A DNA stretch of 64,000 nucleotides from an uncultured Candidatus Saccharibacteria bacterium (GCA_964536985.1 CAZIBG010000001.1:49017-113016), one strand, 5' to 3'. Positions 7,694-32,186 are shown, counted from the stretch's first letter. The notes: generated by a model from the sequence alone, not told the origin. Numbers and translations: made by a program.

Positions 7694-9349
7694 CTACTTA
7701 CCGACCCAGCTCGCCGTCTCAGCAGATATTCTATTCATGCGACTTGTATCGCCTAGCTGTTCTAGTATTTGCTGGGTCATGCGGACAACGTACGTTCCGG
7801 CCTCGGCATCAAGTCTTCCCTGTCGCTGTCGTACTTGATCAAAGTCACCAATTGCTTGCTGTACAGTACCTAATGTTCTCAGCACGCTACTATCTCCGAG
7901 ATTCTTTCCGCTCTTTTTGGCACGGAAGGTAAGCTCCTCGATATTACGAACGATACCCTTCCATCCTGTAAATTTAATCTGGTCCTGAATGGCCTGAGCA
8001 GCTTCGCCTAATTGCTTTCTCTCTGTTAGTTTCATGGTATTAGCAAGGTCAGCAACCATCTTCTCGGCGTCTTCAGGTTCGATAGTACCATCAATTTTGC
8101 GAGTTAACTTTCGAACCATCATATCGGCGTCTTCGGTATCTAATCCAAGAGCACGTGTTGCACGATCGATCGTATCATCGTTAGCGATAGTTTGAAATTT
8201 TGACTTCAGCTGTTCTACAGCTTCAACGCCCATAGTACCTGTCTTAGATCGTATAAAGCCACCAATCTCATCCATATGACCATCATAAATACGATTTACT
8301 AAGCCTCTCCAGTTATCACTAAATCCAGCAATTTCTTGCTTAAGTTCATTAAGTGCCCTTGCCTGTTCCTGTAGGCCTATGCCTTCAAGGTTCTTTAAAC
8401 GTGGCTGAACTGTTTCAGTCCATAGCCGTTCGGCCAGCTTACTATGCTGCAATTCCTGCCAAGACACAACGACACTTCGAAGTTCGGATTTCAACTTGTA
8501 GTCAATTTCTGGGTCTCTAAGAGCATTCGACAAGGCCTCGCCAGATTCGAAGAACCCACTAATATCTAGTTTTCCGGGATCATCTTCTGTAGCTTCCACC
8601 ATGTCTTCGGCAACTTCTTCAGGCACTGGTTCGATAACAACTTCCGTTGGTACAACAAGTTCGGCAACTTCTTCTGCAACTTCCTGCAGTTCTGAGCTAT
8701 CCGAAATAACTTCGGCTGAAGGAATAGTTGCATCAAGGTCGACGGCAACAGTCAAATCATCATCAGTCTCAGTATCTGTCAGTTCCAACTTTCGTGAAAT
8801 GACCGATGTGCCGTTCTTTGAGTTCTTATCGGTAACTATCACATTACCTGTTTCTGCATCAACTCGAATACCAAAATGCTTACCTGAAAAGGCCTTGTCG
8901 GTCCCATCACTTGCAATATCCTCAAGTCCAGGAGTTAAGTTCTTAGCCTTAGCACCCATCACTTGCTCTTTTGTCGCGTCAGCAATTACCGCTCCACGTA
9001 GCAACCCTTCTTCGTTTCTCTGTACTTCAACTCCAGAAAAATCTCCGCTATGCATATCTTTCCCTTGAAGTTTAACCAATGCATATCTGTCCTCTGTTGC
9101 AGGATCGACACTACCCGGATCAAGATCTACTAAGCCCAACTGTTGGCTGTTTCCGGCTTCAACTATCAACATTAGATCACCACGGAGAGTATCCGTAAGC
9201 TCCATGCTTGTAATAAGTGGTCCAGCGGAAACATCAACGGTGTACTCACCGCCTAAGCGCTCCTTGGCTTCGTTGGTCCCGCCAATAGACTCTACGGTTG
9301 GCACGCCAAGCTGTTGATTTCGATTTAACTCATTGTTTGATGCTGTCAT
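7694..9349 (-). CDS. FHA-domain protein with acidic linker and long helical C-terminal region
   Basis: FHA signature FSGKHFGIRVDAETGNVIVTDKNSKNGTSV (SxxH ... NG[TS]); acidic PEEVAE-type linker; C-terminal ~300 aa with no recognised motif. Confidence 0.5.
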   Translation of the reverse strand: MTASNNELNRNQQLGVPTVESIGGTNEAKERLGGEYTVDVSAGPLITSMELTDTLRGDLMLIVEAGNSQQLGLVDLDPGSVDPATEDRYALVKLQGKDMHSGDFSGVEVQRNEEGLLRGAVIADATKEQVMGAKAKNLTPGLEDIASDGTDKAFSGKHFGIRVDAETGNVIVTDKNSKNGTSVISRKLELTDTETDDDLTVAVDLDATIPSAEVISDSSELQEVAEEVAELVVPTEVVIEPVPEEVAEDMVEATEDDPGKLDISGFFESGEALSNALRDPEIDYKLKSELRSVVVSWQELQHSKLAERLWTETVQPRLKNLEGIGLQEQARALNELKQEIAGFSDNWRGLVNRIYDGHMDEIGGFIRSKTGTMGVEAVEQLKSKFQTIANDDTIDRATRALGLDTEDADMMVRKLTRKIDGTIEPEDAEKMVADLANTMKLTERKQLGEAAQAIQDQIKFTGWKGIVRNIEELTFRAKKSGKNLGDSSVLRTLGTVQQAIGDFDQVRQRQGRLDAEAGTYVVRMTQQILEQLGDTSRMNRISAETASWVGK

Positions 9350-9394
9350 GTTTTTTTTGTTTTAATAACCTTATACATACACTAGCATGATGTA

Positions 9395-9429
9395 TACAAA
9401 AAAGCAATAGCGTTATGTGCTATTGCTTT
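9395..9429 (-). terminator. intrinsic terminator after the response regulator gene
   Basis: Minus strand reads AAAGCAATAGC-ACATAAC-GCTATTGCTTT followed by TTTG: an 11-bp stem plus U tract. Confidence 0.65.
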
Positions 9430-9452
9430 CTGCGTTTTGCTAAGTTGGAGTG

Positions 9453-9857
9453 TTAGCCAGCGAGGTGGTGCTTGATGCGTTCTACGACATCAGCTATAAC
9501 TACCTGGGATTTAACTAGGTAGTCGTCCGCTCCGAGTGATTTTGCTCGCTCTTTGTCGCTATCTTGGCTCAATGCTGTAAGCATGACTACCTTAACCTTA
9601 GCGGTCTCTGGAGTGTTGCGGAGGATGTCGAGGACATCAAAGCCGCTAACTTTTGGCATCATAACGTCCAATACAATAAGGTCTGGGCGATATTCGAGCG
9701 CTCCTGCAAGTGCGTCTTCGCCGTTTGGTACTCGTTTTACATCAAAGCCTTCTGCTTGAAGTCGGGTTTGGTAAACGCTTGCGAGAGCGTCGTCATCTTC
9801 TACAAGTAGGATCTTGTATTGTTTTGTCGGGCTTGCGGTAGTTGTTGCTTCTTCCAT
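9453..9857 (-). CDS. stand-alone response regulator receiver (canonical)
   Basis: KILLVEDDD...DLIVLDVMMPKVSGFDVL...VVMLTAL...DYLVKS; all phospho-acceptor and pocket residues present; no output domain. Confidence 0.8.
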   Translation of the reverse strand: MEEATTTASPTKQYKILLVEDDDALASVYQTRLQAEGFDVKRVPNGEDALAGALEYRPDLIVLDVMMPKVSGFDVLDILRNTPETAKVKVVMLTALSQDSDKERAKSLGADDYLVKSQVVIADVVERIKHHLAG

Positions 9858-9909
9858 ACTGCTAATGGTAGAGTATTTTGCCGTTTATGGCAACTTTGTC
9901 TAGGAGTTA

Positions 9910-11508
9910 TTACCCTGCAAGAGCTTTAATAAATCCGGTAAACATTGGATGTGGTACATTTGGTCGCGATAGGAATTCTGGATGGAACTGACTTGCTACA
10001 AAATATGGATGATCAACGCCTTCGATAATCTCTACTAGTTCGTTACTTGGTGACTTACCAACAGCTTTGATCCCCCATGTCTCATACTGACCGACGTAAG
10101 CATTATTTGCTTCGTAGCGGTGGCGGTGGCGCTCGGTAATCTTCTGAGTACCATAAAGCTTCGCAGCCTTACTTCCCTTTTGAAGTACGCAAGGATAATC
10201 TCCTAGTCGCATTGTCCCGCCGGTGTTCTCTTTGCCAGTCTGATCGACCATCGTATGGATAACGAGGTTGCTTGATTGAGGATTAAACTCTGCAGAGTTA
10301 GCGTCGCTAATGCCTGCGTTTCGAGCCGCAGCAATAACACCAACTTGCATACCCAGACACAACCCAAGGTAAGGCATTTTTGTAGTTAGGGCATGTTGGG
10401 CGGCGATAATCTTACCCTCTACGCCTCGCGACCCGAATCCGCCTGGAACAACTATGCCATCAAGACCTTTAAGGTGCTTCTTGATGTCTTTGTCATCCCC
10501 GAGCTTTTCTGCGTGAACCCATTTGATCGCGATACCAACGCCTTGAGCCCATGCTGCCGCTTTGAGTGCCTCAAAGACCGACATATAGGTGTCCTGATTG
10601 TCCATATACTTGGCGACGACTCCGACGGTGACAGTCTTCTTTGGAGTGGCAAGTATCGATTTAACCATTTTCTCCCACTCAGCTAGTTGCGGCTTTTTCG
10701 CCGGTAATTTAAGACGGTCGACGATATATTCGCCGATACCTTGATTCTCGAGTGTAAGTGGCACTTCATATACTGTTCGGGCATTAGGCAAAATAGCTAT
10801 TCCAGCTTCTGGCACACCACAAAAGGCACTCAATTTTGCTTTTGTTGATCCATTTGTTGGAACTTCACTACGTGCAACCAGTACATTCGGAATAATCCCT
10901 AAGCTTCTTAGATCACGTGTTGCATTCTGTGCAGGCTTGGTTTTAATTTCTTTACTTGTCGATAGATACGGAAGATATACCACATGGACATACAAGCAGT
11001 TCTCGTATCCAACGACTGCGCCAAGTTCTCGAATAGCCTCGAAGAATGCAGGACTTTCGTAGTCGCCCACGGTACCACCAATTTCAACAATATGAACATC
11101 GAACCCACGCGCAGCAGTTACAACCGCCTGCATAATGGCATTAGTAAAGTGTGGTATCACCTGAACAGTTTGACCGAGGAATTTACCGGCACGCTCATCG
11201 TCAATCAACCCTCTGAGGATCCTGCCACTCATAACCGAACTGGAGCGAGTAAGTTGAGTATTCAAGAATCGTTCGTAATGTCCTAAATCTAGATCTGTTT
11301 CAGCACCATCCTGAGTAACAAAACATTCTCCGTGTTCTGCTGGATTTAATGTCCCGGCGTCGACATTTAGATAGGGGTCTAGCTTCTGCATATTCACCCG
11401 AAGCCCGCGAGCTTTTAGAATATTCCCCATTGAGGCGCCGGTTATTCCCTTTCCTAAGCCAGAAATGACTCCGCCTGTAACAAATACATACTTAACAGGT
11501 TTTCCCAA
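9910..11508 (-). CDS. pyrG: CTP synthase
   Basis: KYVFVTGGVISGLGKG, the GATase motif LGLCLGMQ, and HRHRYE; TTG start preceded by GAGGGG. Confidence 0.95.
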   Translation of the reverse strand: MGKPVKYVFVTGGVISGLGKGITGASMGNILKARGLRVNMQKLDPYLNVDAGTLNPAEHGECFVTQDGAETDLDLGHYERFLNTQLTRSSSVMSGRILRGLIDDERAGKFLGQTVQVIPHFTNAIMQAVVTAARGFDVHIVEIGGTVGDYESPAFFEAIRELGAVVGYENCLYVHVVYLPYLSTSKEIKTKPAQNATRDLRSLGIIPNVLVARSEVPTNGSTKAKLSAFCGVPEAGIAILPNARTVYEVPLTLENQGIGEYIVDRLKLPAKKPQLAEWEKMVKSILATPKKTVTVGVVAKYMDNQDTYMSVFEALKAAAWAQGVGIAIKWVHAEKLGDDKDIKKHLKGLDGIVVPGGFGSRGVEGKIIAAQHALTTKMPYLGLCLGMQVGVIAAARNAGISDANSAEFNPQSSNLVIHTMVDQTGKENTGGTMRLGDYPCVLQKGSKAAKLYGTQKITERHRHRYEANNAYVGQYETWGIKAVGKSPSNELVEIIEGVDHPYFVASQFHPEFLSRPNVPHPMFTGFIKALAG

Positions 11509-24233: not shown

Positions 24234-25106
24234 CTAGTTGGTGAAGCTTCGGATAATAGCTCGGTATAGTCGCGGGTGTTTGCGTTCCAAATATTCTAAA
24301 ACCAATACTACTGAGAATGGTATGGCAAATGATATGACGACCCCCAAAAGTCGTATCCAGTCGGTTATACCATGTAGCTCTACAAATTCCGATCCTGGCT
24401 CTGTTGCCAGCATCCAAGAAAATGAAATGAATAGGCCAATAAAGATACAAATTATCCAAGCAAGTCGAACCATATGGCCGCCGATCTTTGCAGTTTGCTC
24501 AGGGATTATATCCATCATCCGAGAATCAATAACTTCCTGATGTCCTTTATCCTTCCATGACTTTAACCTGTGATCAATCTCGGCAAGTAGTACCTGTGCT
24601 GCGTCGAGTATTGCCTGTTCTGCTTTTGGCTTCTTAAATACTCTTTTTTGACTGATTAGCCTAAGATGCTGTCCTCTTATCTCTACATCGTAGTGCCTAG
24701 ATGAATCAATGAGTGTTTGCATTACATCGGGTGAGATAATACTAAGTGCCAACTGCTTTGAGCCGTCAGCTGCATACAACTGGAAATACTTATCAAAGTT
24801 TCCTTCTAAAGAAACTTTATATTTTTTGGGGAAATAGAACCGCGGCCCAGACATTCTTGAGTCTGCATGACTATCGAGGTATATATGTGGAAGGTGCTTA
24901 TCAAGTGTAATATCGATACCTCGAAACTTGATCATCCGACCGGTTTTAACCACTACCTCCGATTCAATGTCATCGCCAAACTTGTAGTCATAGACTTTCT
25001 TACCGATATATAGCCTGCCGCTCTTTACGCGAGTCTGCATGAACCACCACAAACAGTAAAGTGCACCGAGTGTTAATAGGGTATTGATAATGTTCTGTGA
25101 GTTCAA
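24234..25106 (-). CDS. hypothetical membrane protein
   Basis: One N-terminal and about 3 C-terminal TM segments flanking a soluble middle; no recognised motif. Confidence 0.4.
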   Translation of the reverse strand: MNSQNIINTLLTLGALYCLWWFMQTRVKSGRLYIGKKVYDYKFGDDIESEVVVKTGRMIKFRGIDITLDKHLPHIYLDSHADSRMSGPRFYFPKKYKVSLEGNFDKYFQLYAADGSKQLALSIISPDVMQTLIDSSRHYDVEIRGQHLRLISQKRVFKKPKAEQAILDAAQVLLAEIDHRLKSWKDKGHQEVIDSRMMDIIPEQTAKIGGHMVRLAWIICIFIGLFISFSWMLATEPGSEFVELHGITDWIRLLGVVISFAIPFSVVLVLEYLERKHPRLYRAIIRSFTN

Positions 25107-26445: not shown

Positions 26446-27720
26446 CTATAACGCATTCTTCTTTAGTTTAAGCACTACAAGTGATTCAATATGTGGCGTC
26501 CGTGGGAAAAAGTTATAGCCCTCAATCAACGATATATCATAAACTTCAGCCAGGTGCGCGACATCCCTTGCCTGAGTAGATGGATTGCACGAAAGATAAC
26601 AGATTAGAACCGGTTTTTTATCTAATATGTGGTCGACCACACTATGGTGCAGTCCGCTGCGAGGAGGATCAACGATTAGGCAGGTATCGGATTGTATGTA
26701 GCTTAAAGCCTCTTCCGAGCTGGCGTGAACCACCTCTATGCTGCGTCCCTCGGTGTTATGCTTTGCCATGGCGATATTTGCCGGGTCCAACTCTATCAAG
26801 GCTTTGGTGCCTGATATTGGTATACCAATGGAACCGACACCGGCATACATATCGATAATGTTTTTACTACCCGCCACCTGCTTGTCGATCTGCTTTAAGG
26901 CCATTTCAAAGACGGGTATATTTACCTGGAAGAACCCTGATACATCATATTGCATTGATGTGCCAAGTAACTCATCACTAAGTCTGGTATCACCAATAGC
27001 ATAGATCAACTTGGTAGGTACCGAGGCTGGGCTCTTAGGATTTGAGTGATACACCTTCATGCCTTGTACGCCTTCTGGAATATCAATCTTTGGGAAAGAT
27101 TTTGGCTTTACATACAACGCTACTGTAACGCTCCCCTGTTGGTCACATCGCAAAACAAGTGATTTTAAGTCACTCGCGCGAACACCTATTTTGTTCAATT
27201 CGGCAAGAATATTGCCTGCAGCCGTATTGATGGCTGGAAGCGCCAAAGCACTTCCTGTAACAATCTGTTTTTGATGAGTTCCTCGGTTATAAAATGCAAA
27301 GTGTAAGCCGTCGTCGTCTCCATAGAAGGAAAATTCAATCTTATTTCGGTAGGCAAAGGGCTTATCGTCGGATCGCATAGTAATATCGCCGACCGTAACA
27401 CCTTCCCGCCTAAATGCATCGGCAAGAATTTGCGTTTTATACATGTTCTCGGCTTGAAGTTCGATAATTTGCCACGGCGATGTCGCCAGGTATATGCTTT
27501 CTTCCGGCTCGATACGATACTTGGAGGCAATTATAATATCCTCTGCTACAGCCTCGGCAAAGTCTTTCTTGCTGCGGGTTATACGAGCCTTCACTTTCTC
27601 ACCAGGCAATGAGTTCCAGACAAAAACCTTGCGTCCATCATCCAATACGCCGAGTCCTTGTCCGCCATGAACAAGCTTATCAATTACAGCCTCTTCGTAA
27701 ACAATTTTTTTCTTTGTCAT
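26446..27720 (-). CDS. TRAM-domain RNA (uracil-5-)-methyltransferase, RlmD/RlmCD/TrmA family
   Basis: N-terminal TRAM (HGGQGLGVLDDGRKVFVWNSLPGEKV); DMYAGVGSIG SAM motif; YLSCNPSTQARD catalytic Cys box. No Fe-S cysteines. Confidence 0.8.
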   Translation of the reverse strand: MTKKKIVYEEAVIDKLVHGGQGLGVLDDGRKVFVWNSLPGEKVKARITRSKKDFAEAVAEDIIIASKYRIEPEESIYLATSPWQIIELQAENMYKTQILADAFRREGVTVGDITMRSDDKPFAYRNKIEFSFYGDDDGLHFAFYNRGTHQKQIVTGSALALPAINTAAGNILAELNKIGVRASDLKSLVLRCDQQGSVTVALYVKPKSFPKIDIPEGVQGMKVYHSNPKSPASVPTKLIYAIGDTRLSDELLGTSMQYDVSGFFQVNIPVFEMALKQIDKQVAGSKNIIDMYAGVGSIGIPISGTKALIELDPANIAMAKHNTEGRSIEVVHASSEEALSYIQSDTCLIVDPPRSGLHHSVVDHILDKKPVLICYLSCNPSTQARDVAHLAEVYDISLIEGYNFFPRTPHIESLVVLKLKKNAL

Positions 27721-27729
27721 TAAGATCGA

Positions 27730-28539
27730 TTACGGACGCAGAGCACCAAAGAACACTTGCCACGCCAATGCCGACTTGGCGACTAAGCTTAGAATCATAT
27801 ATACGCGCTCACCGTAAAGGTAGTCCGCCCACTTACCCTTCTTGGTGTATTGCAGATACATGTTGAGTGCAAAACTGTTAAAGAATACGAAGATGCTGGC
27901 ATAGATAAAGTAAACGAATGTCGGAACGCCTTCTACTCCGTAGACTTCTGCTCCAATAAAGTAAGCCGCCAAAACAATCCACGGAACAATGCCTGCGATA
28001 CAGCCGATCCAATATGGAAGCCAGTTAATTTTCTTGGCACCTGAGTTTTGAAGCTCCATCACCAGTCCTGTCAGGTTCATCACCAGAGTAAGAGCAAAGA
28101 TCATGAGTAAGCTTGAGAAGTCATAGACTCCGCTCAGAAGTGCTATTGCGATCATCATGGTGCTGGCGCTAAATCCATACTCAATCCATCGAAGCTTATT
28201 TATTCCCTTCTTCAGGTTAGACTCATATGTTTTTCGGTATCTAGTTGCAATAATAACGTGGGCCAATGCCGACATGAACAGGAACGCGGCCACTAAATAG
28301 GCGATATTAACACTAAATAAGGTGTGTTGAGCAGATGCCAATACAGGCTTGCCTGCTACCTTAGAGGCAATACTGTCGATCGTCAGGAATGACGTAGTTA
28401 TTGGCCAAGTAATACCCTTGGCAAGCACCAATATTATGACGCCTTGTACGAAGTGCAAAACAGCCAGGTTGCGATTCCATTTATGCAGATTCTCGATCTT
28501 GATATTTTGTTTTCTATTGAAGAATTGTAGTAATTTCAT
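27730..28539 (-). CDS. heliorhodopsin (7-TM retinal protein, HeR family)
   Basis: 7 TM. Blocks LRWIEYGFSASTMMIA, YWIGCIAGIVPWIVLAAYFI and FFNSFALNMYLQYTKKGKWADYLYGERVYMILSLVAKSALAWQVFFGAL match the remembered HeR-48C12 sequence almost residue for residue. This includes the TM3 Glu and the TM7 Schiff-base Lys (SLVAKS). Confidence 0.85.
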   Translation of the reverse strand: MKLLQFFNRKQNIKIENLHKWNRNLAVLHFVQGVIILVLAKGITWPITTSFLTIDSIASKVAGKPVLASAQHTLFSVNIAYLVAAFLFMSALAHVIIATRYRKTYESNLKKGINKLRWIEYGFSASTMMIAIALLSGVYDFSSLLMIFALTLVMNLTGLVMELQNSGAKKINWLPYWIGCIAGIVPWIVLAAYFIGAEVYGVEGVPTFVYFIYASIFVFFNSFALNMYLQYTKKGKWADYLYGERVYMILSLVAKSALAWQVFFGALRP

Positions 28540-28546
28540 ACTTGTT

Positions 28547-28555
28547 AGTGTAGCA
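28547..28555 (-). promoter_or_regulatory. extended -10 TGCTACACT, 7 nt upstream of the heliorhodopsin ATG
   Basis: Reverse complement reads TGCTACACT then aacaagt then ATG; no SD. Confidence 0.4.
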
Positions 28556-28584
28556 CATCAAGCCCCTGTTGGTCGCTGTTGAGG

Positions 28585-28593
28585 TGGTATACT
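28585..28593 (+). promoter_or_regulatory. extended -10 TGGTATACT, 10 nt upstream of the sortase ATG
   Basis: tggtatact then acttatagta then ATG; no SD. Confidence 0.4.
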
Positions 28594-28603
28594 ACTTATA
28601 GTA

Positions 28604-29269
28604 ATGAAGTCTTCAATAAAAATTCCAAAACGACATATTTTACAGAATAAAAACATTTCTCGGCCGAAACGTTCCAAAAAATCTAAGGCTTTAATTGGCA
28701 TCCTGCTAACGATCAGTCTCGTCAGTATTGTTTTGCTCAGCCTACCCTATATTCCGCGCATCACGTTTTTAATTAAGAAACCAAAGATCAATCCTGCTGC
28801 TTATCAGGAAGCCGCAAAGTCGACAAAAGCAGGCACTCCGGTCAAGGTGGACCCACAGAAACCAGGAAACAGATTAGTACTCCCTGATATTGGAGTGGAC
28901 ACCCAAGTAATTGAAGGTAAGAATCTTAATGTTATCGGCAAGAACCAAGGCGTCTGGAGAGAGTCCCGAACTATCACGCCAGAAATAGACGGTAACTTAG
29001 TTATTGCTGGGCATCGCTTCTTATATACCGCCACTAACGGTGGCTGGTTTTATAATCTTCCTGAGCTGAAGGTTGGACAGACTATTTATGTACGATGGAA
29101 TGATAAGGTCTATCCGTATGAGGTTTACCGCACACGATCCGTTCTTCCAACGCAGGTTGATATACGTGATGCCGAACCGGGTGTTCCGCGAAAACTAACT
29201 ATGTACACCTGCTACCCATTAGGCAGTACTTCTAAACGATTCGTTATAGAAGCAAAACAGATCAATTAA
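28604..29269 (+). CDS. sortase family transpeptidase
   Basis: N-terminal TM anchor; catalytic His (VIAGHRF), Cys (LTMYTCYP, the TLxTC box) and Arg (KRFVIEA). Confidence 0.8.
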   Translation: MKSSIKIPKRHILQNKNISRPKRSKKSKALIGILLTISLVSIVLLSLPYIPRITFLIKKPKINPAAYQEAAKSTKAGTPVKVDPQKPGNRLVLPDIGVDTQVIEGKNLNVIGKNQGVWRESRTITPEIDGNLVIAGHRFLYTATNGGWFYNLPELKVGQTIYVRWNDKVYPYEVYRTRSVLPTQVDIRDAEPGVPRKLTMYTCYPLGSTSKRFVIEAKQIN

Positions 29270-29794
29270 CTACTTTATGCGGCTAGTAAATTTTGCCCTG
29301 AGCTTAACGAGTTTTGGATTGATAATAACTTGGCAATAGCCCTGTTCGGGGTGTTTCTGAAAGTAGTTCTGATGTTCATCTTCAGCGTCAAAGAAATCAC
29401 CAAGCTTAGCAACTTCTGTTACTACCGGATCATCCCAAAGTTTTGAGACTTTAGTAATTGATTCTTTAATAACAGCCTTCTGTTTGTCGTCGGTATAGAG
29501 AATTATTGACCGATACTCTGTACCTTTATCATATCCCTGGTAGTTTAGAGTCGTTGGGTTGTGCATTGCCCAGAAAATATCCAATACATCATCTAGGGAT
29601 ATGACGCTTGGATCAAAAATAACTTTCACTACCTCAGCATGACCCGTGTCGCCTTCTGCAACTGAGTAGTATGTGGGATTGGTGGTGTGACCTCCAGCAT
29701 ACCCAGAAACAACGTCTTTAACCCCTTGAATAAGCCGGTAGCCGGCGTCCAAACACCAAAAGCAACCACCGCCAAGAACGATCGTTTCTGTCAT
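29270..29794 (-). CDS. msrA: peptide-methionine (S)-S-oxide reductase
   Basis: GGGCFWC active-site motif and GHAEVVKV. Confidence 0.9.
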   Translation of the reverse strand: MTETIVLGGGCFWCLDAGYRLIQGVKDVVSGYAGGHTTNPTYYSVAEGDTGHAEVVKVIFDPSVISLDDVLDIFWAMHNPTTLNYQGYDKGTEYRSIILYTDDKQKAVIKESITKVSKLWDDPVVTEVAKLGDFFDAEDEHQNYFQKHPEQGYCQVIINPKLVKLRAKFTSRIK

Positions 29795-30108: not shown

Positions 30109-31485
30109 TTAATCTGTTCTTAGTGCTTCGATTGGATCCATTTTGGCTGCTTTACGAGCCGGTAAATATCCAGCGAGCATGGCAACAACGATCAGTCCAA
30201 TGATTAATGATGCGATCTGACCTGGCTCGAAGATAAGTAGACTATTGCCTGCTCCCAGATCAAGTTTCTTGGTTACCCAAGGGTTAAGCGGAATACCCAC
30301 CAATAAGGCCAAGAGAGCCCCAATTGCACCGCCAAGGAAGCCAATCCAACCAGCCTCGAGCATGAATAGTCTTCGTAGATCACGCTTTCTCATGCCTAGT
30401 GCTTTCATTAGGCCAATTTCTCGAATACGCTCTAAAACGCTAATGTACTGCGTGTTAACGATGCCAAATACAGAAGCAATAACCGTAATCAGTCCAAATA
30501 CTCCGACCAAAGCCTGCAGGATATTTACAATTTGAGTAATGGATTGCTGAATCTCTTTACTGCTCATGGTGTAATAGTCCTTACTCTTGAGGTCGGCTTG
30601 AGCAGCGCTAATATTAGCGGCATTTGATCCATCTTTAACCCTGACATTCACGTAGGTGTACTTACCAGCGTTCGAGGTACCATCGGTGGTATAGCTATAA
30701 ATACTCTTAGCATCTAGCTCGGAAACGTAAGTCGGAAGTGCACCAAAGTTGATGCTCGTTGCCGCCTTCTTGGTAACTGCGACAATGGTAAATGTTCTTG
30801 TCTCGGTTGCGGGTTTTAAGTCTTGCAAATCTACTCCATCACGAATAGCCTGTAAAACGGCGTCGCCCGATGTATCAGCAAATGGTTTCTGAATAGCAAT
30901 TTCAACTTTTTGGCCAATGGCAGATTTAACATTCTTGAAGCCTAGTGCTTTTACATAACCATCGGGTATGGTGATTTGGCCTTTCTGTAAGTCACCCTTA
31001 GCCGGGATCTTTCCGCCAGAAATCTCAGGCTTTTGAGCAGGGTTATATGCCTGAGAGCTTAGTGTGTACTTCTTTTGACCCTCACGGGTAATATAGCGGA
31101 GATTGAGCTGGTAATTTGCTCTGACACTTTCTACATACGGGAGCTTCTGAAGCTGCTCAATGTCCTTATCGGTTACCTGCTTTATTTGTAGACTTGAACC
31201 ATCTCCTCCGACAGTAAGTGATGACACCGACTCATCATATTCTTTAGGCTCAGTTATTGGGGCTCCCGTATTAGAGACTTCTTTATCACGACCAACAATC
31301 AATTCTGATGGATCAAAGTTGCTGGCAACAAGCCTGTCGGTGTACTGTCGAATTCCATTTCCTGCGGCCAGTGTAATTGTTAGCGTAAAGCCGCCAACTG
31401 CAATTGCTAGAGAGGTTAAAATGGTTCGGAGCTTAGCGCTTGTAAGGCTGCGGCCACTTCGTCGAATTGTATCTTGTATGCGCAT
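30109..31485 (-). CDS. ABC transporter permease, FtsX/MacB-like with large periplasmic-type domain
   Basis: TM1, a ~270-aa extracytoplasmic domain, then 3 C-terminal TMs; 1-nt overlap with the ATPase gene. Confidence 0.8.
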   Translation of the reverse strand: MRIQDTIRRSGRSLTSAKLRTILTSLAIAVGGFTLTITLAAGNGIRQYTDRLVASNFDPSELIVGRDKEVSNTGAPITEPKEYDESVSSLTVGGDGSSLQIKQVTDKDIEQLQKLPYVESVRANYQLNLRYITREGQKKYTLSSQAYNPAQKPEISGGKIPAKGDLQKGQITIPDGYVKALGFKNVKSAIGQKVEIAIQKPFADTSGDAVLQAIRDGVDLQDLKPATETRTFTIVAVTKKAATSINFGALPTYVSELDAKSIYSYTTDGTSNAGKYTYVNVRVKDGSNAANISAAQADLKSKDYYTMSSKEIQQSITQIVNILQALVGVFGLITVIASVFGIVNTQYISVLERIREIGLMKALGMRKRDLRRLFMLEAGWIGFLGGAIGALLALLVGIPLNPWVTKKLDLGAGNSLLIFEPGQIASLIIGLIVVAMLAGYLPARKAAKMDPIEALRTD

Positions 31486-32186
31486 TATTTCTTTTTCCTC
31501 ACTACCTGCTTAGGCTTTTGAATTGACTCAATGACGCCATCCTTGAGGCGAACTTGTATCTGGCAACGTGAAGCCAGATCATCATCATGAGTGACGATTA
31601 TGATTGTACTTCCAATAGTCTTATTTATATCAAACAGTAGGTCGATAATTTTTTCACCTGTTGCGCTATCCAAGTTTCCTGTAGGCTCATCAGCAAAAAT
31701 CAGCTTGGGTTTATTAACAATCGCCCTGGCAATCGCTAGACGCTGTTTTTGACCACCGGAAAGATTCCGTGCCTTGACGTTGATTTTTTCGCTCAGATCA
31801 ACAGCCTCCAGCGCTTCAATCACTCGTTTCTTGCGGTCCCGTCGCCCTACTTCTGCAATTTCAAGTGGCAACATAACGTTCTGGTAACATGTCTGACTAC
31901 CCTCTACAAAAAACGCCTGGAAAATAAAGCTCATCGATTCTGCTCTAAAGTGATCCATCTGTTTGGTCTTCATCTGACCCAGCTCAACGTTTCCAACGGA
32001 AACATGTCCGTCGCTTGGCCTATCGAGCCCACTCATAATGTGCATGAGCGTGGATTTACCTGATCCACTTTTACCAATAATGGCAACTGTAGATCCCTCT
32101 TTAATACTTAGATTTATATCCTTGAGCGCAGTAAATGCACTATCCTTCTTGCCGTATGTCTTGGTGACGTTTTTAACCTCTATCAT
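31485..32186 (-). CDS. ABC transporter ATP-binding protein (MacB/LolD-like)
   Basis: GKSGSGKST, LSGGQKQRLAIARA, LIFADEPTGNLD. Confidence 0.9.
   Translation of the reverse strand: MIEVKNVTKTYGKKDSAFTALKDINLSIKEGSTVAIIGKSGSGKSTLMHIMSGLDRPSDGHVSVGNVELGQMKTKQMDHFRAESMSFIFQAFFVEGSQTCYQNVMLPLEIAEVGRRDRKKRVIEALEAVDLSEKINVKARNLSGGQKQRLAIARAIVNKPKLIFADEPTGNLDSATGEKIIDLLFDINKTIGSTIIIVTHDDDLASRCQIQVRLKDGVIESIQKPKQVVRKKK

Follow-up and report, generated by a model that had tools for sequence, protein, structure and literature searches.

A 64,000-nucleotide (nt) stretch of DNA from an uncultured Candidatus Saccharibacteria bacterium (GCA_964536985.1, CAZIBG010000001.1:49017-113016; hereafter the window, with positions counted from its first letter) carries a gene for a heliorhodopsin (HeR), a membrane protein that binds retinal and senses light. 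An initial annotation, made from the sequence alone, had placed a protein of 269 amino acids (aa) at positions 27730-28539, and an ATG-initiated open reading frame (ORF) lies exactly there, on the minus strand. We compared its product with known rhodopsins, in particular with the founding member of the family, HeR 48C12, and analysed the genes around it. The coding sequence and the codons of the two Schiff-base residues, located in the third and seventh transmembrane segments (TM3 and TM7), are as follows:

27730..28539, minus strand: HeR coding sequence, 269 aa, ATG-initiated ORF (Pfam PF18761; NCBIfam NF038020; PDB 6is6; AlphaFold model)
27775..27777, minus strand: codon of K255, the retinal Schiff-base Lys in TM7 (motif S251-L-V-A-K255), which aligns with K241 of 48C12
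28180..28182, minus strand: codon of E120, the Schiff-base counterion in TM3 (RWIEY), which aligns with E107 of 48C12

The predicted protein matches the entire Pfam Heliorhodopsin profile PF18761 (positions 1-242 of 242) with E = 8.5e-92 and 307.3 bits against a cutoff of 26.7. It also reaches 311.3 bits with the NCBIfam equivalog NF038020 ('heliorhodopsin HeR', cutoff 100), a score at which the NCBI pipeline would assign this name automatically. Among PDB sequences, matches were obtained to 6is6 (E = 1.1e-69), the HeR of Thermoplasmatales archaeon SG8-52-1 (TaHeR), and to 6su3 (48C12, E = 4.6e-54). By these scores, the similarity to the family is far above chance. At E < 1e-10, 6468 relatives were found in databases. 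The best 120 of these share 62-81% identity with the window HeR, and all named ones among these 120 belong to Candidatus Saccharibacteria or Patescibacteria. Some close relatives already bear the name 'heliorhodopsin', and NCBI and Logan assemblies already contain the identical protein. The SRA runs with this exact gene were not mentioned in any paper that our literature search retrieved. The type-1 rhodopsin profile PF01036 (Bac_rhodopsin) gave no match to the window HeR at E ≤ 0.01. A type-1 microbial rhodopsin, including those known from Saccharibacteria (SacR), is ruled out by this result together with the SxxxK motif in place of DxxxK, the N-in charge bias and the low identity of 8-18% to type-1 structures (see below). 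We consider it practically certain that the gene encodes a true HeR: the best matches fall inside the family, and both the TM7 Lys and the TM3 Glu are properly aligned, in line with the initial family assignment.

An AlphaFold2 model built from 32 sequences (mean predicted local distance difference test, pLDDT, 87.8; predicted TM-score, pTM, 0.83) contains seven helices at residues 15-39, 79-98, 115-135, 141-165, 174-200, 207-232 and 240-266, and the HeR-type beta-hairpin between TM1 and TM2 (strands 45-54 and 67-77). Seven hydrophobic segments were also obtained from the hydropathy profile, so that model and profile agree with the seven TM segments proposed initially. Foldseek comparison of the model returned HeR structures only among the top ten (TM-score 0.83-0.87); 6is6 scored 0.87/0.93 with a root-mean-square deviation of 1.7 Å, and 48C12 scored 0.84/0.88. 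Type-1 rhodopsins ranked after the HeRs (TMq ≤ 0.68, 8-18% identity). Furthermore, we counted 19 Lys and Arg residues on the N-terminus and the even-numbered loops versus 3 on the opposite side. According to the positive-inside rule, this bias predicts an N-in/C-out orientation, that is, the inverted topology of HeRs that the initial annotation had named, here as a purely computed result.

All named functional residues of 48C12 (PDB 6su3, 6su4, 6uh3) align with the window HeR, and the fold is the same, although global identity is only 45.5%. The equivalents of H23, H80, R104, E107, S237 and K241 of 48C12 are H29, H94, R117, E120, S251 and K255, and W260 aligns too. Thus, the Schiff-base Lys in the TM7 stretch SLVAKS and the counter-ion Glu in TM3 are found where they had been annotated. 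Three sequence blocks had, in addition, been quoted as nearly identical to 48C12. The blocks themselves are present, at residues 116-131, 176-195 and 219-267, but the claimed degree of identity did not hold, since 7/16 (44%), 14/20 (70%) and 36/49 (73%) of their positions are shared. Q213 of 48C12 corresponds to M227, a Met that the window HeR has in common with TaHeR. With 51.6% identity, TaHeR (PDB 6is6, 7u55, 7clj) is the closest solved structure; its fenestration residues are shared by the window HeR, and its organism also lacks retinal synthesis. TaHeR differs in being archaeal, and the window HeR has six additional residues in the TM1-TM2 loop and five in the TM5-TM6 loop.

Conservation was scored in two alignments of 26 and 32 relatives, with overall identity down to 45%. 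K255 is invariant across both, H29 and H94 are each conserved in 32 of 32 relatives, and position 120 is Glu in 31 of 32 and Asp in one. Together with S251, R117 and W260, these residues are invariant or nearly so. A natural variant is found in a 68% identical relative (P0025), in which the counterion Glu is replaced by Asp (RWIDY) and the Ser of SxxxK by Gly; the engineered TaHeR mutant E108D (PDB 7clj) has the identical Glu-to-Asp exchange. The residues of the lateral fenestration and carotenoid site are all present (Y176, C180, G183, F220, N221 and A224, corresponding to positions 162, 166, 169, 206, 207 and 210 of 48C12). A 2025 preprint, which argues for a carotenoid-binding fenestration in 91% of HeRs, defines the motif, in 48C12 numbering, by an aromatic residue at each of positions 162 and 206, a small one at each of 166 and 210, Gly169 and Asn207 (10.1101/2025.11.27.691015). 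The predicted protein thus carries the motif of carotenoid-binding ('two-antenna') HeRs.

The 71 ORF calls of the window cover about 95% of its sequence, and the minus strand carries 57 of them. Every 2-kb bin except one shows negative GC skew (window:1-64000); a single replichore appears to hold the entire window, its genes being co-oriented. Pfam annotation assigned housekeeping functions to essentially all ORFs. Genes for translation comprise RF1, RF2, PrmC, RRF, EF-Ts, ribosomal proteins S2, L21, L27 and L31, and Ser-, His-, Asp- and Ile-type tRNA synthetases. Furthermore, SecA, CTP synthase, FtsZ/FtsA/FtsEX, ParAB, class II ribonucleotide reductase with NrdR, signal peptidase, HtrA, RecO, exonuclease VII and UppS are encoded, the latter being the sole isoprenoid enzyme in the window. 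Scans of the window for tRNA genes and Rfam families gave no match. Since there is no rRNA or tRNA marker in the window, taxonomy rests on protein relatives, and the genome loci that match the HeR best are Saccharibacteria metagenome-assembled genomes. Judged by these relatives, the host is a Candidatus Saccharibacteria bacterium (TM7, Candidate Phyla Radiation, CPR), which fits the housekeeping, reduced-genome context of the initial annotation. Saccharibacteria have a monoderm envelope. Such an envelope fits the sortase gene adjacent to HeR and the FtsEX-CHAP hydrolase genes of the window. The latter form a Gram-positive-style division-hydrolase module at window:11579-15736 (minus strand), where genes for a CHAP-domain protein and an S41 (CtpA-like) peptidase come after FtsE-FtsX.

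By Pfam annotation, no crt, blh or type-1 rhodopsin gene (including SacR) was detected within the 64-kb window. Rhodopsin-bearing Saccharibacteria have been described as lacking blh (Jaffe et al. 2022, PMC9296517), and their type-1 rhodopsins take up external retinal within 30 s, comparable to HeR. According to the same study, retinal enters HeRs, including TaHeR, quickly through the fenestration, and co-occurring Actinobacteria were proposed as its likely source (PMC9296517). SacR proteins share with the window HeR the host group and the dependence on external retinal, which they take up rapidly via a lateral opening, but they belong to another family and are outward proton pumps with a DTS motif and N-out topology. 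The statement of the initial annotation that an organism with this gene content is unlikely to make retinal itself fits these data, 64 kb being no proof for a genome. From the family and the literature on the host group, we infer that the window HeR likely depends on exogenous retinal. The best overall explanation is then a functional HeR of a member of Candidatus Saccharibacteria (CPR/Patescibacteria) that would serve a sensory function with exogenous retinal; we assign this explanation a probability of roughly 0.85.

The immediate neighbourhood of the HeR gene contains the following features:

26446..27720, minus strand: TRAM and U5-methyltransferase protein (RlmD/TrmA-like), 424 aa (Pfam TRAM and tRNA_U5-meth_tr; NCBIfam RlmD models below cutoff)
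28540..28603: divergent HeR-sortase intergenic region, 64 nt, read from the sequence; presumed location of the HeR promoter
28604..29269, plus strand: sortase, divergent from HeR (Pfam Sortase, E = 5.9e-23)
29270..29794, minus strand: MsrA, peptide methionine sulfoxide reductase (Pfam PMSR, E = 2.5e-59)
31485..32186 and 30109..31485: MacB-type ABC transporter (ABC ATPase and MacB permease), 1.6 kb upstream of HeR

As initially annotated, the U5-methyltransferase gene starts 9 nt past the HeR stop codon in the same orientation, and the sortase gene diverges from HeR across 64 nt. The U5-methyltransferase gene and HeR are probably co-transcribed. We rejected the 9-nt gap as a sign of functional coupling, since 24 of the 48 gaps between same-strand genes in the window do not exceed 9 nt. 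A consensus scan found no convincing sigma-70-like site in the 64-nt spacer, the scan itself being uninformative (5 promoter-like sites versus 11.9 in shuffled sequence). The same scan gave no terminator-like site between HeR and the U5-methyltransferase gene, with a total of 7 such sites versus 5.5 shuffled. HeR and the ABC transporter are separated by the opposite-strand sortase, MsrA and a DUF427 gene, and the run downstream of HeR consists of the U5-methyltransferase, an unannotated membrane protein and RsmE. The operon predicted for HeR contains no gene of a published HeR partner next to it.

Several further observations were made in the window. Two predicted membrane proteins of 212 and 290 aa (window:25786-26424 and 24234-25106, both minus strand) lie in the co-oriented run downstream of HeR; neither matches a Pfam or NCBIfam model, and the syntenic loci L001-L003 lack both. 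The AspRS-type tRNA synthetase (window:32217-34220, minus strand) carries a C-terminal DUF2000 domain (residues 534-667) that is absent from the 518-aa orthologue in L001, and tblastn alignments end before DUF2000 in L002, L004 and L010; the gene has the appearance of a fusion specific to this lineage. Two stand-alone response-regulator receiver proteins (window:1875-2258 and 9453-9857) and a 551-aa FHA-domain protein (window:7694-9349), all on the minus strand, are encoded 18-26 kb from HeR, so that no link is implied, and no histidine kinase was found in the 64 kb. At window:54942-56514, two TrmB-family regulator genes are arranged tail to tail with their 3' ends overlapping by 20 nt, next to a gene for a 306-aa protein with a weak SRPBCC/polyketide-cyclase-like match.

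The initial annotation had suggested a survey of conserved HeR neighbours. We examined a further 92 HeR loci, of which 80 are metagenomic and 12 come from genomes, clustering the ORFs within 5 kb of each HeR blind to annotation. MsrA was the commonest neighbour family; it was found at 17 of the 92 loci, in each case in the orientation of HeR, and 16 of these loci have it upstream of HeR. The clade of the window HeR shares a block of the order AspRS ... MsrA-HeR ... PD-(D/E)XK nuclease-SerRS-HPF-SecA. Within this clade, MsrA lies upstream of HeR, within 1 kb and on the same strand, at 14 of 20 loci, a count from which L033 was left out because of too little upstream sequence. MsrA is at most 100 nt from HeR at seven loci, six in the clade plus L033. 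Other genes of the block vary, namely the sortase (5/22 loci), the RlmD-like gene after HeR (10/19) and a HAD hydrolase (5/20). By this distribution, the sortase between MsrA and HeR is a lineage-specific insertion. That HeR keeps its syntenic position while intervening genes vary argues that it is an old, vertically inherited resident of a Saccharimonadales housekeeping block and not a recent transfer.

An alternative layout of the block, MsrA-HeR-HAD, was found at L024 (HAD-family hydrolase at 10646-11266) and also at L010, L021, L033, L071 and L023, with the hydrolase gene 10-34 nt after HeR; in the lineage of the window, the RlmD-like gene takes its place. L076 is the only locus with two separate tblastn matches of the HeR query, which may reflect a gene that is split or else an additional copy of HeR. 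A DUF1295 membrane protein (steroid-reductase or isoprenylcysteine-methyltransferase-like) is encoded 19-28 nt from HeR at L007:4598-5371 and L035:681-1460, and within 2 kb of HeR at L012:2354-3124 and L090:3329-3847. It lies outside the ten published neighbour groups and may be a lipid- or isoprenoid-modifying HeR partner.

Outside the clade, MsrA was found next to HeR in a different setting. At L080:9033-10768, three co-oriented genes encode MsrA (9033-9590), desulfoferrodoxin, a superoxide reductase (9597-9971), and HeR (9998-10768), with gaps of 6 and 26 nt. This HeR belongs to a distant branch (51% identity to the window HeR), its MsrA is only 38% identical, and the contig has no other synteny with the window. 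At L090, MsrA is located 977 nt downstream of another distant HeR. MsrA thus lies within 1 kb of HeR at 2 of 69 non-clade loci, versus 0.04-0.14 expected by chance in a post hoc test. These two loci are more telling than the adjacency within the clade. In the library that we searched, no paper was found that pairs heliorhodopsin with methionine sulfoxide reductase or msrA.

For the mechanism, we adopt the general model of a HeR that does not pump but, once activated by light, modulates the protein encoded by an adjacent gene. This model is given in PMC11109279 and, as far as that paper relates them, in the papers cited there, for regulatory pairs in which the partner of HeR is glutamine synthetase, photolyase or the ABC transporter OmrDE. 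The window HeR differs from these systems in that none of the ten published partner groups adjoins it, and MsrA, desulfoferrodoxin and the U5-methyltransferase are outside those groups. According to the literature, the cell would make no retinal. The apoprotein would load all-trans retinal, and possibly a xanthophyll, from the host or the surroundings, with entry via the fenestration that the inverted topology would expose in a monoderm envelope. Green light would then drive a slow photocycle without net ion pumping, and its long-lived intermediate could act as a switch on cytoplasmic partner proteins. On balance, we favour such a sensory or regulatory role of the window HeR over that of a transporter. 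The weakest step is the last one, in which the most likely output would be defence against, or repair of, photo-oxidative damage. It is proposed because of the conserved MsrA neighbour, and an output specifically in oxidative-stress repair is doubtful.

Several observations weigh against this interpretation. The window represents about 64 kb of a genome of about 0.8-1 Mb, and genes for retinal or carotenoid synthesis may be located elsewhere. Within the clade, MsrA is retained at 13 of 18 loci, compared to 9/9 for SerRS, 8/9 for PD-(D/E)XK and 8/9 for HPF downstream, and it is missing beside HeR at L018, L022, L023, L026 and L028. We therefore rejected the adjacency within the clade as a sign of selection for linkage, as the downstream housekeeping genes are kept as well or better; inherited synteny alone accounts for it. 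In the window, the opposite-strand sortase between MsrA and HeR precludes their co-transcription. Outside the clade, only 2 of the 69 loci have MsrA near HeR, and that this count exceeds chance rests on the post hoc test. Thus, the MsrA neighbourhood weakly supports the published photo-oxidative-stress hypothesis, and the connection to MsrA and superoxide reductase would be a modest, rather unlikely extension of it. A stronger version, in which HeR would form the light-sensing arm of a protein-repair or reactive oxygen species detoxification module both in Saccharimonadales and, independently, in one or more further lineages (L080), is unlikely. In this version, HeR illuminated with host-derived retinal bound would up-regulate or directly activate methionine-sulfoxide repair.

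HeR could instead be a light switch for another neighbour, either the MacB-type ABC transporter, as in the pair of OcHeR and OmrDE, or the U5-methyltransferase, in which case light would act on rRNA or tRNA modification. Control of an ABC transporter by HeR was shown experimentally in another species (PMC11109279), and the ABC ATPase and MacB permease recur upstream of HeR in the clade. The window transporter is, however, of the MacB/FtsX type, unlike the heterodimeric exporter studied there, stands three genes away from HeR (DUF427, MsrA and the opposite-strand sortase) and is kept at only 7 of 13 clade loci. We rejected placing the window HeR in the published HeR-ABC transporter group, since the transporter is of the wrong type and not adjacent. 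In favour of a transporter partner, ABC ATPases directly flank HeR in a second Patescibacteria clade (L006, L047, L066 and L094; 50-56% identity to the window HeR), on the same strand and 25-383 nt away, an arrangement that resembles the published group. The U5-methyltransferase gene follows the HeR stop codon closely without a terminator-like site and occupies this place in 10 of 19 clade loci, but the gap is ordinary for the window, the gene is missing after HeR in about half of the clade (for example L004, L021, L024 and L010), and a soluble RNA methyltransferase is outside the ten recurrent partner groups (PMC11109279). We regard a switch for either neighbour as quite improbable.

Equally, we see little room for an energy or ion device, be it a two-antenna harvester using retinal and a scavenged xanthophyll or a proton transporter like some viral HeRs, that would aid the fermentative metabolism of a CPR cell. 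The window HeR groups with TaHeR and the 48C12-type cellular HeRs, for which, to our knowledge, no pumping has been found. Its full carotenoid-site motif (as defined in 10.1101/2025.11.27.691015), the proton transport by viral HeRs, as cited in PMC11109279, and the few routes to a proton gradient in CPR cells (PMC9296517) speak for such a role. But HeRs with demonstrated ion transport belong to the viral subfamily 2, a group without the carotenoid site (10.1101/2025.11.27.691015) that the window HeR possesses, and a separate type-1 rhodopsin family fills the role of proton pump in Saccharibacteria (PMC9296517). An energy or ion-transport role is thus disfavoured. Finally, an inactive relic, that is, an apoprotein never supplied with chromophore, would suit a cell without a retinal pathway in the 64-kb window and from a group for which none is reported (PMC9296517), but is hardly credible: the ORF is intact, external retinal uptake was shown for TaHeR and Saccharibacteria type-1 rhodopsins (PMC9296517), and the (near-)invariant Schiff-base Lys, counterion, His pair and pocket residues, together with a gene position kept across deeply diverged genomes, point to purifying selection on a working photoreceptor.

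The initial observation is confirmed, and its interpretation is supported by our analysis. Novelty or rarity, as implied by the initial annotation, does not apply, since HeRs in Saccharimonadia were reported in 2022 and each element of the earlier interpretation is in print. Chiriac et al. 2022 screened 1326 CPR genomes and found 115 rhodopsins, 98 of them HeRs, including 80 in Saccharimonadia; SLVAK was among the commonest TM7 motifs, and a link to oxidative-stress protection was suggested (PMC9166423). Host class, family, motif, reduced genome and the oxidative-stress idea are the same for the window HeR, and nothing of substance separates it from those proteins; the syntenic block and the MsrA neighbour are not described there. 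Bulzu et al. 2021 proposed that HeRs serve monoderms as sensory switches that counter photo-oxidative stress, based on neighbouring genes for glutaredoxin, glutathione peroxidase, glyoxalase, catalase and peroxiredoxin and on histidine kinases (PMC8612252). Shim et al. 2024 classified HeR operons by partner into ten groups and showed for an ABC exporter that it is modulated by light (PMC11109279). Furthermore, the inverted topology was argued to enable the recruitment of xanthophylls from outside by monoderms (10.1101/2025.11.27.691015). What the present analysis adds is the position of HeR in a vertically inherited block with MsrA as its usual upstream neighbour, and an unrelated locus combining MsrA, superoxide reductase and HeR.

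As it stands, our result confirms the automated and published annotation of HeRs in Saccharibacteria and matters little beyond that, apart from recalling that the cell would have to obtain its chromophore externally. It raises two questions: which role HeR plays in ultra-small, retinal-auxotrophic episymbionts, and whether chromophore supply ties them to their hosts. Within the photo-oxidative-stress framework, the MsrA neighbour and the L080 locus provide a concrete and cheaply testable partner hypothesis. If it is true, MsrA and superoxide reductase would be new classes of HeR partners beyond the ten published groups, and the photoreceptor of an episymbiont would depend on the chromophore of its host.

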